Source: Escherichia phage EC.P1
Sequence record: PQ657772.1
Length of the DNA: 64,000 nt
Strand: one strand, 5' to 3'
Shown here: positions 33,496 to 41,302 of the stretch, in pieces
Numbering within the stretch: the stretch's first letter is position 1
Layout of the letters: each line of letters starts with the position of its first letter
Program-made: the position numbers and the translations under genes
Notes under the pieces: generated by a model
What the model saw: the letters and a program-made list of their open reading frames with translations, nothing else
The model's database searches: none
Told to the model about the DNA's origin: nothing

Positions 33496-33527
33496 ATCCA
33501 GTACTATTATAGTACTGGATTTTTTAT
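33496..33527. terminator. bidirectional terminator (ATCCAGTACT..AGTACTGGAT flanked by A-run and T-run)
   Basis: palindromic stem between convergent genes. Confidence 0.65.
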
Positions 33528-33898
33528 TATAACATACGTTTTTTACGAATAGTATTGTGGATATTTTTTAAGTAGTTCACACCTTTACACAACCCATAAA
33601 ATACACCAGCACATACACCAAATGCAGGTATCATACATGCAAACATCGTTATCAATTCCCACATCTCCATACCATCTTGATTCGGTCCAAGGTCAAAGAT
33701 AACAACCAAAACCAAACCTGTGATACTTAGCATATAATATGCCATGAAGATAATAAAAGAAACAATACCAACATCAGAGCGAACTGAATTTAGCATATTA
33801 TATACTGGGGTTACACAGAAGTAATACAATAACCAAATCAAAGAACCTAAACTAAACACAATAATAGTAATGATTGAAAATATTTCACGATAACTCAT
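33527..33898 (-). CDS. small multi-TM membrane protein, paralog family M (basic C-terminal tail)
   Basis: hydrophobic segments; ends IRKKRML. Confidence 0.6.
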   Translation of the reverse strand: MSYREIFSIITIIVFSLGSLIWLLYYFCVTPVYNMLNSVRSDVGIVSFIIFMAYYMLSITGLVLVVIFDLGPNQDGMEMWELITMFACMIPAFGVCAGVFYGLCKGVNYLKNIHNTIRKKRML

Positions 33899-33899
33899 T

Positions 33900-34262
33900 T
33901 TAGTTCCTCTTACCTAAACGCTCATGGATTTCGGAAATCTTATTATACATCCATGCCAGCAACTCAACGGATGCACAGAGAATAACCACACACAGTGTTA
34001 GTGAACATACCATAATACCAAATGTTATAAAATTCGAACTCGATGTTAATAATGCAACCAGCATTAGAATAAAACCAAAATTGAATGCTGTACTCAACAC
34101 AGTATATGCTGGACTATATCTCCTTTGTATTACATCATATATATTTGATAATGGTCGCTTATGGAAGTACTTCCCAATGCACACGAATGCATTCAGTGAG
34201 AAGATAAATGTATACGCCATTACCATTAATTGACCAATAAAAGAAAATTCAATATTATTCAT
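33900..34262 (-). CDS. membrane protein, family M
   Basis: ends HERLGKRN. Confidence 0.6.
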   Translation of the reverse strand: MNNIEFSFIGQLMVMAYTFIFSLNAFVCIGKYFHKRPLSNIYDVIQRRYSPAYTVLSTAFNFGFILMLVALLTSSSNFITFGIMVCSLTLCVVILCASVELLAWMYNKISEIHERLGKRN

Positions 34263-34263
34263 G

Positions 34264-34635
34264 TTATCCTCGTTTGCGGTATTTGATGCTTTGGTGCATT
34301 CTCTGAAAATGTGGAACTAATACATATTGTACGGTTTGCCAAATTACCATCAGATTATGGACAGCACCACCGAGTAGACCAAACACTACACAGATAATTG
34401 CCAGTACTGGATCACCATCTACCATACCCCATTTGAATATATGTAAAATCCATACAGTGATAAGTAGTAATAAACTAATCCAATACGTAGTAAAAAATCC
34501 CGCATGTAATTCATAATCATCAGCAATTTCATCGTATACGGTTTCCAAGAAGGATACACAGAAGAACTTGCCAATAATAACAATTGTACTAATAAACAAC
34601 ATAGAAGTTAATATAATAAGTGCAATTTCCATCAC
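34264..34635 (-). CDS. membrane protein, family M
   Basis: ends IKYRKRG. Confidence 0.6.
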   Translation of the reverse strand: MMEIALIILTSMLFISTIVIIGKFFCVSFLETVYDEIADDYELHAGFFTTYWISLLLLITVWILHIFKWGMVDGDPVLAIICVVFGLLGGAVHNLMVIWQTVQYVLVPHFQRMHQSIKYRKRG

Positions 34636-34946
34636 ATCCCTCGTTTACGCTTTTGATTGCGTCTAAATTCGGTTAGCCCACGACTAATCGGTGGCATCAG
34701 ACTACATAAAAAAATAACAGTTGTTGGTAATAACATGAAGTCAATCATTGCTGTATTAACAGGTGGATCACATACCAAATAATACAAACAAGTAATACTA
34801 ATTATGGTTGACCCAATAAAAGGAATACAAAATTCTTTTATCTGTTTTTCAACATAATCAAACATCTTCAATACAAATAAAAATCCAACCCAACACATAA
34901 TAAAATAGAATGAATAAAGCGTGTAAATCAATGTTACGATATCCAT
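34632..34946 (-). CDS. membrane protein, family M
   Basis: ends RRNQKRKRGM; overlaps neighbour by 4 nt. Confidence 0.6.
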   Translation of the reverse strand: MDIVTLIYTLYSFYFIMCWVGFLFVLKMFDYVEKQIKEFCIPFIGSTIISITCLYYLVCDPPVNTAMIDFMLLPTTVIFLCSLMPPISRGLTEFRRNQKRKRGM

Positions 34947-35284
34947 TAGTACCTCGCATCAGGAACTTTAGCACGTAATTTATGAACGGCTGGGATCAAC
35001 AACAAACTTACATATGCAATAGTTGAACCCCAATAGAATACTAATATAATTGGTTCACCATTAGAACGAAAACCTCTACTAATCATTGAGTAGTGAATAA
35101 TAGGCATAAACATCGCCATAAAAAACCATGCGTGTAATTTTAATTGCAGCATGTTATCAGAGATGAATACTGAAATTGGTCGTTTGAAGAACCACATCAG
35201 AAAGTAGAATCCAGCACTAAGAATATAGTACATAGTACTAACTTTCATATACCACGGCAGTAAGTGTAAAAAATATTCCATCAT
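34946..35284 (-). CDS. membrane protein, family M
   Basis: ends LRAKVPDARY. Confidence 0.6.
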   Translation of the reverse strand: MMEYFLHLLPWYMKVSTMYYILSAGFYFLMWFFKRPISVFISDNMLQLKLHAWFFMAMFMPIIHYSMISRGFRSNGEPIILVFYWGSTIAYVSLLLIPAVHKLRAKVPDARY

Positions 35285-35628
35285 TCCTCCGGTATCTTGT
35301 TTCGAAGTTCAATCATAACACAACAAAGTTTAATGGTCAAGTAAAAAACTACACATATCATACCCAATGTACCGTAAACTGCGGAGAATGCTGGCAGTAC
35401 CTTTCCTGTGAGTGTTGCTACAATACATGCTATCAATGTTGATGCAAACAACGATTGATTAATGAAAGAATTCATAAAATCTTCACCATTACGCTTATAG
35501 AATTGTCGTTTAAAATACCATCCTAGAAACATAACTACCCAAAATGTTACATAACCTGTTAGAATAATCCCTGCAATTGAATGTGCAACAGAACTACTCT
35601 TTAAAAACTCAAGATAAGATTCAAACAT
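35281..35628 (-). CDS. membrane protein, family M
   Basis: ends ELRNKIPEE. Confidence 0.6.
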   Translation of the reverse strand: MFESYLEFLKSSSVAHSIAGIILTGYVTFWVVMFLGWYFKRQFYKRNGEDFMNSFINQSLFASTLIACIVATLTGKVLPAFSAVYGTLGMICVVFYLTIKLCCVMIELRNKIPEE

Positions 35629-39544: not shown

Positions 39545-39620
39545 GACAATTCCTCGATTGTGGGGATGAGAAGTTCATCCCCTTGATAAACATTATACAG
39601 TACTGAATGAGTTTGTCAAC

Positions 39621-40001
39621 TCAAAATAAATTCATTTCATGTGCGTATTGTGGTTCAAGATGCGATAAGTTTTTGAAGCTTTCTTTCAACTCAGCATCAT
39701 CTACATACACCGTACCTGGTACATTCCCCATAGTGAAACCTACCCACACAGTCATGTCACCAGTCCCTAAGCGTGGCATTGATAGCGAACCATCAGGTGA
39801 AACATCAAACGCTACACTGAAGTCATCAGTAACAACGTCAGAACCATTTTCGAGAATAATACATCCACTATCTTTAAGCTTCTGAATGTGGATAGCAGCC
39901 TCTACAGCACGTTTGAAGTTATAGTAAGACTCTTTATCCTCAAACATTGATTGTTTAATCAGACGCTTGTTTAGCTCGGTTACTTTGTGCATTTGACGCA
40001 T
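39621..40001 (-). CDS. hypothetical protein
   Basis: 126-aa ORF. Confidence 0.6.
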   Translation of the reverse strand: MRQMHKVTELNKRLIKQSMFEDKESYYNFKRAVEAAIHIQKLKDSGCIILENGSDVVTDDFSVAFDVSPDGSLSMPRLGTGDMTVWVGFTMGNVPGTVYVDDAELKESFKNLSHLEPQYAHEMNLF

Positions 40002-40258
40002 TACTTATCCATCTCCCACAGTTGTAGAATTTCATAAGAGCCTGGTGGTGCTGGATTCCTGATCTCAGGGAATTGAGTACTTTTAGGATTTCCACCAGCA
40101 TTAAATTCGTCAAGTAATGATTCCAGTTCGCGACGATCCTGAACAACATAAACACAATCACCTGAACCTTCTTCGAGAATCATTTCACTTCCTGCACAAT
40201 CCCATACTGTTGAGATACATAGAATCTCTTTTGTATTTTTATTACGCAATGCAAACAT
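40001..40258 (-). CDS. hypothetical protein
   Basis: 85-aa ORF. Confidence 0.55.
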   Translation of the reverse strand: MFALRNKNTKEILCISTVWDCAGSEMILEEGSGDCVYVVQDRRELESLLDEFNAGGNPKSTQFPEIRNPAPPGSYEILQLWEMDK

Positions 40259-40266
40259 AGCACCCC

Positions 40267-40611
40267 CTATCGATTTGGCATTTTATCTCGTAATCTAATG
40301 AGATAATCAACCACAGACCATGTTGAAATGAAAGTGATATAAGTACCGAAGAATCCTACCAGAATAAAGGCAACAAGTGTACTCCCATTTGGATCTTCAG
40401 CTTTAATACCGATGATACCATCAAATACAGTGAAAAATGTAGACATACACGTTAAACAGATGTACATCACCAATAAGAATTCATGTTCCAATGATGGATA
40501 TAAACGGTCAAAGAGTTTATAAAATTTAAAGTACAGTAGGAGTATACCAACAAAGGTATAGAAAGTAAACAGTGTTGTTATGATATATGAGATTAAATTT
40601 AAATTATACAT
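40267..40611 (-). CDS. membrane protein, family M (second cluster; start trimmed)
   Basis: ends RLRDKMPNR. Confidence 0.55.
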   Translation of the reverse strand: MYNLNLISYIITTLFTFYTFVGILLLYFKFYKLFDRLYPSLEHEFLLVMYICLTCMSTFFTVFDGIIGIKAEDPNGSTLVAFILVGFFGTYITFISTWSVVDYLIRLRDKMPNR

Positions 40612-40612
40612 C

Positions 40613-40960
40613 TCAACGCTCCGGTAGATTATCACGTAAGGTTTTAATTCGATTATACAATTTCATTGCTACATTCCCAAATAAACCAGAACCCATTACT
40701 AAAATGTATGCGATGATCATAGTAATAATCACAATAGTACCTAGACTGTAATGTACTGCACTAATACCCATTATTGTTTCTACAATGATGTGAGCAACAG
40801 AAATAATCAAAAGTACTACTACAATTGGATGATTTGGATACATTCGGTTAAACAATGTTTTGTACTTAAAGAAGTACAGTACTCCACCAAATAAGAAGTA
40901 CACAATGTAGATTGATGCAACGGCATAAGCAAACGCATTAGTGTAAAAAATCATTATCAA
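40613..40960 (-). CDS. membrane protein, family M
   Basis: ends LRDNLPER. Confidence 0.6.
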   Translation of the reverse strand: MIMIFYTNAFAYAVASIYIVYFLFGGVLYFFKYKTLFNRMYPNHPIVVVLLIISVAHIIVETIMGISAVHYSLGTIVIITMIIAYILVMGSGLFGNVAMKLYNRIKTLRDNLPER

Positions 40961-40963
40961 TCC

Positions 40964-41302
40964 TTACTTTTCAGGGATTTTATTACGCCACTCATCGATG
41001 CGATGAAGCAGTTTAAAGAGCAAAAATATCGGAACAGTAGCTATCATAGTAGCAATTGTTAGTAATGTCAACACCGATACGAGATTTAATTCGTCAGTAC
41101 TATATCCACATACCAGTGCTTCAATTATCCCCCACGTACATGCACTGAACATCAAAAATGAAATTGGTGCATCGTAGTATATGCGTTGATACAAGGTCGT
41201 GTATCGGAAGAATGCAATAATGTAACAAAACATGTAATACACCCAAATTAACGATACTACATAAAATGATACCTTATTAATTAATTCAAAATGATGTTCC
41301 AT
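40964..41302 (-). CDS. membrane protein, family M
   Basis: ends EWRNKIPEK. Confidence 0.6.
   Translation of the reverse strand: MEHHFELINKVSFYVVSLIWVYYMFCYIIAFFRYTTLYQRIYYDAPISFLMFSACTWGIIEALVCGYSTDELNLVSVLTLLTIATMIATVPIFLLFKLLHRIDEWRNKIPEK

Follow-up and report, generated by a model that had tools for sequence, protein, structure and literature searches.

A 64,000-nucleotide (nt) stretch of Escherichia phage EC.P1 (sequence record PQ657772.1), which is DNA of an Asteriusvirus-type, strictly lytic jumbo coliphage and is called the window below, carries ten small minus-strand genes, m1 to m10, arranged as cluster A (m1-m7) and cluster B (m8-m10). Judged by profile comparison, these genes are one family with two subtypes, encoding proteins of 104 to 123 amino acids (aa) that are each predicted to cross the inner membrane three times; we regard this anatomy and family relationship as highly probable. 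We infer that the proteins are early, non-structural, individually dispensable inner-membrane accessory factors. Our first guess at their activity, held at a probability of roughly 0.35, is an exclusion-type mechanism in which each paralogue would alter the inner membrane of the infected cell and block DNA entry by superinfecting phages. Between positions 33000 and 42000, phage fEgEco12 is 99% identical to the window and many coliphages of 350 to 380 kilobases (kb) are 88 to 98% identical. All ten open reading frames (ORFs), which an earlier note on this DNA had proposed as paralogous small membrane-protein genes, are present on the minus strand, and their fEgEco12 counterparts (g573-g579 and g560-g562) are all annotated coding sequences labelled 'hypothetical protein'.

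The paralogy is seen by profile-profile comparison and with a family hidden Markov model (HMM); pairwise BLASTP of the ten against each other shows little beyond the links among m8, m9 and m10 (1e-9 to 1e-12) and a marginal m6-m7 match (2e-3). Orthologues were gathered from phages 121Q, ph0011, JP4, Turkey5 and A4, and the group profiles were compared by hhalign, using a column-reversed profile as the null for each comparison and an unrelated neighbor with three transmembrane (TM) segments (38522-38773) as a control. The real scores of 22 to 81 linked all ten proteins, against a maximum of 17.9 for the reversed null and 13 for the control membrane protein. The links include m1-m3 (35), m2-m3 (40), m2-m6 (38), m5-m6 (52), m6-m7 (33), m6-m8 (45), m7-m8 (43), m6-m10 (42) and those of m8, m9 and m10 among themselves (56 to 81). 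Most alignments are co-linear over 70 to 116 columns; the m6-m10 alignment covers only 26 columns, in the C-terminal tail. The weakest link is that of m4 (22.2 to m1, 22.4 to m3; 63.8 bits with the family HMM), which is bridged by m2/m3-type representatives (P0042, P0055 and P0058) that match the m4 HMM at 1e-5 to 4e-6. Profiles built from the three close relatives alone gave weak links, and the Turkey5 and A4 orthologues were needed. With the family HMM the ten genes scored 64 to 96 bits versus 8.6 bits for the next best ORF of the window, a separation far beyond chance. This HMM found no further members in the 64-kb window or in fEgEco12 1-50000, and the other three-TM ORFs of the window (44854, 47200, 49744, 50582, 59900 and 60322), considered as candidate members, proved unrelated.

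Nine of the ten proteins match PHROGs at 3e-4 to 3e-60, across seven clusters of unknown function, and m2 has no significant PHROG match. The families matched are 27618, 26405, 33258, 27396, 19046, 19454, 19285 and 16874, with weak cross-matches between clusters; phrog_16874, matched by m6 (6.4e-6) and m4 (0.011), is the only one with a label, 'membrane protein'. PHROGs thus split into at least seven clusters what is treated here as one family, and their common ancestry is not recorded in PHROGs or in the literature searched. The present analysis merges these clusters, all but one of them labelled 'unknown function', into one defined membrane-protein family. Its topology is stated, it has two hallmark motifs and a probable transcription unit, and a route by which its copy number changes is documented. 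The unity of the family, its topology, transcription unit and copy-number dynamics are not in the literature searched. Tandem families of small membrane proteins are expected in very large phage genomes, and we offer a solid description of an orphan family rather than a surprise.

Hydropathy places three hydrophobic segments in each of the ten proteins; in m5, segments 1 and 2 are aromatic-rich and fall under a strict threshold. TM helices are accordingly predicted in every member and the ten are related by sequence, so neither outcome that the earlier note named as refuting its proposal was obtained. Of the 'three or four' segments first suggested, three is the number that holds, both by hydropathy and in an all-helical AlphaFold2 model of m6. 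The model, computed from a 57-sequence family alignment, has a predicted local distance difference test score of 77 and a predicted template modeling score of 0.56, with long helices at residues 13-38, 55-74 and 77-111. The loop after TM1 is net positive in 7/10 proteins, the TM2-TM3 turn net negative in 8/10 and the tail net positive in 9/10. Together with the model of m6, hydropathy and the positive-inside rule predict an N-out/C-in topology. A single Phe at the cytoplasmic end of TM1 is shared by all 57 diverse members compared; 55 of them have an aromatic residue just before it, and 56 have Arg or His at tail position -8, eight residues from the end.

The two subtypes differ at both hallmark sites. 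TM1 of subtype A (m1-m4) closes with GKFFCV or YYFC, and the tail follows the pattern h-H/R-x-x-h-basic; the corresponding sequences of subtype B (m5-m10) are WFFKRP or FFKY at the end of TM1 and L-R-x-K-I-P-E in the tail. The tail consensus R-x-K-(I/M/L)-P-(E/N), given as frequent in the earlier note, describes only part of the family: the motif, written R-x-K-(I/M/L/V)-P-x, is exact or nearly so in m5, m6, m8, m9 and m10 and partial in m7 (RAKIRG), while m1-m4 have h-(H/R)-x-x-h in its place and then a stretch rich in K/R. The broader claim of a conserved basic tail stands, with the qualification that the extreme C-terminal residues are partly dual-coded, because the Shine-Dalgarno sequence of the next gene overlaps the last codons. 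At 7/8 junctions the final two to four codons of one gene contain the Shine-Dalgarno sequence of the gene downstream of it, for example GGAGG in I-P-E-E, GAGG in K-R-K-R-G and AGAGGA in G-K-R-N. We rejected the possibility that the tail motif is a mere embedded Shine-Dalgarno sequence: it persists in m1, which is followed by a terminator hairpin and no coupled gene; m10 keeps it though the Shine-Dalgarno sequence at that junction comes after the stop codon; and distant members keep it, with Pro and Glu codons varying synonymously between paralogues. The tail motif is a protein feature despite the dual coding.

The tight translational coupling noted earlier is borne out by 1-nt overlaps or 1-nt gaps at 7/8 junctions, the remaining one (m10/m9) being 3 to 9 nt. 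Shine-Dalgarno spacing makes slightly shorter products likely for m3, m5, m8 and m9; for m8, the ATG at 40611 (114 aa) is favored over the GTG at 40635. The genes and the signals around them are collected in Table 1.

Table 1. Members of the family, the adjoining ATPase gene and candidate expression signals, in window coordinates.
Feature	Coordinates	Strand	Description	Scores
m1	33527..33898	-	123 aa, 3-TM, subtype A, tail IHNTIRKKRML; last gene of cluster A	phrog_27618 5.5e-47; hhalign m3 35.0 (116 columns), m10 26.6 (99 columns); family HMM 93.8 bits; omega 0.14-0.21
m2	33900..34262	-	120 aa, 3-TM, subtype A, tail IHERLGKRN	hhalign m3 39.8, m6 37.8; family HMM 84.9 bits; omega 0.27-0.38
m3	34264..34632	-	122 aa from ATG 34632 (GTG 34635 possible), 3-TM, subtype A, GKFFCV after TM1, tail MHQSIKYRKRG	phrog_26405 3e-60; family HMM 83.9 bits
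m4	34632..34946	-	104 aa, 3-TM, subtype A, tail FRRNQKRKRGM; most divergent member	
m5	34946..35281	-	111 aa from ATG 35281, 3 aromatic-rich TM helices, subtype B, WFFKRP, tail LRAKVPDARY	phrog_27396 1.2e-58; hhalign m6 51.5; family HMM 95.5 bits
m6	35281..35628	-	115 aa, 3-TM, subtype B, WYFKR, tail LRNKIPEE; central node of similarity network	hhalign m2 37.8, m5 51.5, m7 32.6, m8 44.9, m10 42.1
m7	35628..35966	-	112 aa, 3-TM, subtype B, WYFKKK, tail GRAKIRGDF; first gene of cluster A	
m8	40267..40611	-	114 aa, 3-TM, subtype B, YFKFYK, tail LRDKMPNR; last gene of cluster B	BLASTP m9 2e-9; hhalign m10 77.5, m6 44.9
m9	40613..40954	-	113 aa from ATG 40954, 3-TM, subtype B, FFKYK, tail LRDNLPER	phrog_19285 2.9e-49; BLASTP m10 9e-12
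m10	40964..41302	-	112 aa, 3-TM, subtype B, FFRY, tail WRNKIPEK; first gene of cluster B	phrog_19285 2.4e-47; hhalign m9 81.4, m6 42.1, m1 26.6
ATPase	36034..36804	-	256-aa P-loop ATPase, T4 NrdC.10 homologue; directly upstream of cluster A, non-member	
Putative cluster-A promoter	35996..36024	-	sigma-70-type TTGACA-17-TACTAT, in 67-nt gap between ATPase and m7	
Hairpin	33495..33521		12-bp (AATCCAGTACTAT..ATAGTACTGGATT), after m1 and convergent RCC1-like gene	
Candidate cluster-B promoter	42039..42068	-	TTGACT-18-TATAAT with TG; nearest strong intergenic sigma-70-type match upstream	

The cluster-A genes are separate orthologue groups whose order, m7-m6-m5-m4-m3-m2-m1, is kept in Turkey5, A4 and a metagenomic relative. 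The position of the cluster is also kept, directly after the gene for the 256-aa P-loop ATPase and abutting a convergent RCC1-like array. Judged from these old groups and their fixed order in divergent relatives, the family is old and tandemly duplicated; the earlier description of it as an expanded membrane-protein family holds, but the expansion is neither recent nor free. A comparison of copy number among related phages, which that description had called for, gives six to eight genes in cluster A and one to three in cluster B where covered. The window and fEgEco12 have seven and three genes, respectively, and lack m7b, an extra gene 46 to 50% identical to m7 that is present in ph0011 and JP4 (eight and three genes). 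Phage 121Q also has eight and three, with m7b present and m4 frameshifted, and Turkey5 reaches eight and three by a duplicated m4, without m7b. A4 has seven and one, SD-1_S14 has six and three with m6 mostly deleted, and the metagenomic L007 has six, without m7, and no cluster B on its 10-kb contig. In Turkey5, cluster B is split by a hydrophilic, lysine-rich 117-aa ORF (8521-8874 of the Turkey5 locus compared) with no counterpart in cluster B of the window.

The route of one such change can be read in m7 of the window. In 30-nt blocks, its upstream region and gene start match m7b of JP4 at 24, 29 and 30 of 30 positions, and the later blocks match m7 of JP4 at 29, 30 and 30 of 30. On this pattern, m7 of the window is an m7b/m7 chimera that took its upstream region and first ~20 to 30 coding nt from m7b; one gene-length unit, the eighth gene m7b, was therefore lost by unequal recombination between tandem paralogues. 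The frameshift of m4 in 121Q, the deletion of m6 in SD-1_S14, the absence of m7 from L007, the loss of m7b and the single cluster-B gene of A4 point to members that are individually dispensable. Values of omega against 121Q and ph0011 are 0.07 to 0.56 across the ten, compared with 0.03 to 0.19 for the ATPase and denV, and the ten are real genes under purifying selection that is somewhat relaxed relative to these two neighbors. Turkey5 orthologues are 28 to 53% identical to those of the window, and conservation is uneven along the proteins: identity within orthologue groups is 0.63 to 0.68 in TM1, loop 1 and the C-terminal tail and 0.49 to 0.56 in TM2, loop 2 and TM3.

A word-indexed search of 5.8 billion proteins returned 27 relatives, and an exhaustive HMMER profile search of 1.84 billion representatives returned 40 clusters, 39 of which comprise proteins of 89 to 130 aa assignable to the ten groups, the remaining one being a 428-aa protein. 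Using m6 and m10 as queries, tblastn matched 35 phage records (31 Escherichia, 4 Salmonella). Among Salmonella phages, Munch, 7t3, SE_PL and PHA46 carry more distant members, as does Klebsiella phage fENko-Kae01, and Erwinia phage Hallingskeid has two tandem subtype-B genes. On these matches the family is confined to Rak2-like jumbo phages of enterobacteria, and the exhaustive search points to no additional groups within reach of detection.

The putative cluster-A promoter, whose activity is predicted from its motif, has a GTACTAC/GTAGTAC palindrome as its spacer and is kept in 121Q, ph0011 (with TTGACG), JP4 and Turkey5 (with TACAAT). The hairpin after m1 scored as terminator-like on both strands in our scan, with a T/A-rich run clear only on the plus strand, and is likewise kept after m1 in 121Q, ph0011, JP4 and Turkey5. 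Cluster A looks like a promoter-to-terminator unit of its own. Cluster B is probably part of an operon that comprises genes for a 137-aa secreted protein and a 100-aa protein, m10, m9, m8 and two more ORFs, an extent judged from gene packing alone. The five best sigma-70-type matches between 31.5 and 44.5 kb are all intergenic and lie just upstream of minus-strand genes. The T4-type late motif TATAAATA occurs once in the window versus 12.7 copies expected (100/100 shuffles had at least one), and it is absent in and before both clusters. Its single copy (46037-46044, minus strand) lies 33 nt upstream of a 127-aa gene (45621-46004). The probable 121Q counterpart of this gene, matched on length and 95% identity, carries a structural-protein annotation, which suggests that TATAAATA is a functional late promoter that is avoided elsewhere. 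Both clusters look early or middle rather than late, because sigma-70-type promoters are present and the late motif is depleted and absent from both. Hairpins of the form CAGTACT...AGTACTG number four, versus none expected (19231-19246, 25256-25271, 26483-26498 and 33499-33517), with related sites at 31613-31629 and 36000-36020; they carry the same GTACT palindrome as the cluster-A promoter spacer, at least the copy at 33499 sits at a gene end, and they may be a phage-specific terminator or regulatory element.

These signals bear on whether the proteins are holin- or antiholin-like and set the time of lysis, a role that had been suggested earlier and that we now consider most improbable. Class I holins such as lambda S105 are ~105 to 120 aa long, with three TM helices, an N-out/C-in topology and a charged C-terminal tail, and the family resembles them in size (104 to 123 aa), in the number of TM helices, in predicted topology and in its basic cytoplasmic tail. 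It differs from them in its early-type promoter, in its ten copies and in the lack of an endolysin next door, and we know of no lysis cassette with ten copies in conserved order. The sigma-70-type promoter and the absence of TATAAATA speak against late expression, no lysozyme gene is found among the neighbors, and none of the ten matches a Pfam or NCBIfam holin at E <= 1. The 121Q homologue of the predicted endolysin of the Rak2 group is gp532 (PMC5259590), whereas the arrays are gp207-209 and gp224-232, and a holin has been reported elsewhere in the fEgEco12 genome (PMC13070987).

The other two roles suggested earlier, superinfection exclusion and host-membrane remodelling, are still plausible. 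Most of the facts are fitted by a set of early, non-structural accessory proteins, each dispensable, that would act on envelope targets. Among the specific readings we tentatively place first that of exclusion-type accessory factors, for which we count the family relationship, topology and invariant residues, the purifying selection, the expression signals and missing late promoter, the gap in the part of a virion proteome described below, the dispensability of members, the region-wise conservation and fast divergence, and the context of membrane genes. Judged from the promoter type, host RNA polymerase would transcribe the clusters early, and the proteins would probably be translated in a coupled chain and inserted into the host inner membrane, without being packaged in virions. 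Each would have a short periplasmic N-terminus, a TM1 ending in an aromatic-Phe pair, a mostly basic cytoplasmic loop, a fast-evolving hairpin made of TM2, an acidic periplasmic turn and TM3, and, on the cytoplasmic side, a C-terminal helix that closes with h-(R/H)-x-K-h and a tail of basic residues or IPE. The constant motifs at the cytoplasmic face would let all members anchor or bind a partner in a common way, and target specificity would come from the variable hairpin. As an accessory factor, each paralogue would alter the inner membrane largely independently of the others, and DNA entry by superinfecting phages may be what is blocked during the long latent period.

Close known parallels are T4 Imm and similar small inner-membrane exclusion proteins; Imm is non-structural and dispensable in the laboratory but shorter, with two TM helices, and encoded by a single gene. 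The family shares with it a strictly lytic myovirus as its source, small size, non-structural character and dispensability, and its promoter type and hydropathy would fit early expression and an inner-membrane location; it differs in showing no sequence or profile similarity to Imm and in its ten to eleven paralogues, each with three TM helices, spread over two arrays. Among the phAPEC6 virion proteins available for comparison (entries gp003-gp158c; PMC7247149), nothing is listed between gp010 and gp035c, the interval in which, by synteny, the arrays should sit. No fold match was found for the family, PADLOC defence-system models gave 0 matches at E <= 0.1 for all ten, and the genes are not discussed in the literature on fEgEco12, Sharanji, phAPEC6 and CBB or in a broader literature search.

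Several points weigh against exclusion. None of the ten has a match above noise in Pfam, NCBIfam or PADLOC, and none matches the Imm, Sp, Cor or Sie families in PHROGs, Pfam or NCBIfam. Most known exclusion proteins are encoded by one gene each, and gene-wide omega is below 1, with no arms-race signal. The early timing is read from promoter motifs alone, and no transcriptome for this genus was found in the literature searched. The phAPEC6 proteome evidence is partial, and small TM proteins are hard to detect by mass spectrometry. The long retention of six to eight ordered paralogues fits non-redundant roles and equally a multi-subunit assembly. We also considered a superinfection-exclusion neighborhood, given the 'lytic conversion lipoprotein' labels in fEgEco12, and set it aside as it has no PHROG backing: the best PHROG match for these genes is weak, a Cor-like one at 9e-4 over the signal peptide.

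Host-takeover or anti-defence inhibitors would suit this anatomy equally, together with the presumed early timing, the dispensability, the variable TM2-loop-TM3 hairpin, the copy-number flux and the fast divergence; each paralogue would bind and silence a different host inner-membrane protein instead of shutting out other phages. Candidate targets would be transporters, enzymes of division or of the cell wall, and membrane-acting abortive-infection effectors. Cells infected with Sharanji filament and bulge before lysis (PMC11895373), so the envelope is perturbed in this genus. The proteins have no homology to known inhibitors or anti-defence proteins in PHROGs, Pfam, NCBIfam or PADLOC, there is no gene-level positive selection, and no evidence here separates such inhibitors from exclusion factors. 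We rank inhibition of host membrane proteins second, as a tentative alternative somewhat less probable than exclusion, ahead of a single complex and, last, lysis control. Most genes of the 350-kb jumbo coliphages are unannotated, and the arrays offer a compact testable target (2.4 kb plus 1 kb) that bears on host-envelope control or competitor defence by slow-growing jumbo phages, which matters for therapy cocktails.

The ATPase gene upstream of cluster A enters the argument through the third possibility, which we consider unlikely: that the paralogues form one hetero-oligomeric inner-membrane complex, a channel or scaffold whose stoichiometry is fixed by coupling, possibly with the NrdC.10-like ATPase. 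The ATPase has AAA-type Pfam matches, is 38% identical to the product of a T-even gene annotated NrdC.10, and lies upstream of cluster A in 121Q, ph0011, JP4, Turkey5, A4, L007 and L008, always directly and in L007 and L008 with no spacer. A complex would also fit the constant order of six to eight distinct paralogues in relatives whose orthologues share no more than ~28 to 53% identity, the 1-nt stop/start overlaps with Shine-Dalgarno sequences inside the upstream gene, and the shared motifs on the cytoplasmic face. However, viable isolates have lost, split or duplicated members, the window has one promoter for the ATPase and another for the array, and the synteny is not independent evidence as all examples share ancestry. 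The ATPase, as the widespread T-even NrdC.10 homologue, is found in 1309 phage records and was for that reason set aside as a synteny anchor; downstream of it, the T-even locus examined carries no array of this kind. The fuller version, in which the cluster-A paralogues, possibly with cluster B, make one inner-membrane machine served by this ATPase, is in our view slightly less probable still; such a machine would have no cellular or viral homologue and might act, for example, as a conduit or scaffold for the long jumbo-phage infection. Were the proteins to prove parts of a single complex, that complex would be a viral membrane machine of a new kind.

The array that converges on cluster A (~12000-33490, plus strand) consists of tandem RCC1-like paralogues of ~375 aa (e.g., 30472-31605 and 32366-33490), labelled 'DNA condensation' or 'chromosome condensation regulator' in relatives and varying in copy number. 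Both this array and the m1-m10 family are multi-copy, tandem, lineage-specific and variable in copy number, whereas the RCC1-like proteins are soluble, and the m1-m10 proteins are membrane-integral and non-structural. Several RCC1-like homologues were detected in phAPEC6 virions, in the part of that proteome available (PMC7247149). On the other side, the segment between the ATPase gene and a conserved 123-aa gene (36805-38157) is a variable hotspot, holding denV and an HNH endonuclease gene in the window, five extra ORFs in 121Q, a Dam-like methyltransferase gene and others in ph0011, and a homing endonuclease gene in JP4. The 83-aa membrane protein encoded at 38522-38773 on the minus strand, unrelated to the family, is 94 to 96% identical in Turkey5 and A4, where its neighbors have diverged to 28 to 58%, an unusually strong conservation for a small hypothetical protein.

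Of 29 window ORFs with a hydrophobic segment, 22 lie on the minus strand between 33.5 and 62.4 kb; these include lipobox proteins (53628-53903 and 54265-54516) and an adjacent three-TM pair (59900-60325 and 60322-60759; phrog_22013 and phrog_15839), and the minus strand of 33500-62400 looks like an envelope-directed gene block. Outside the window, fEgEco12 has a gene annotated 'protein spackle' at 5284-5583, and ~30 consecutive overlapping genes of ~65 to 85 aa at 21091-27280 look like another tandem multigene family.

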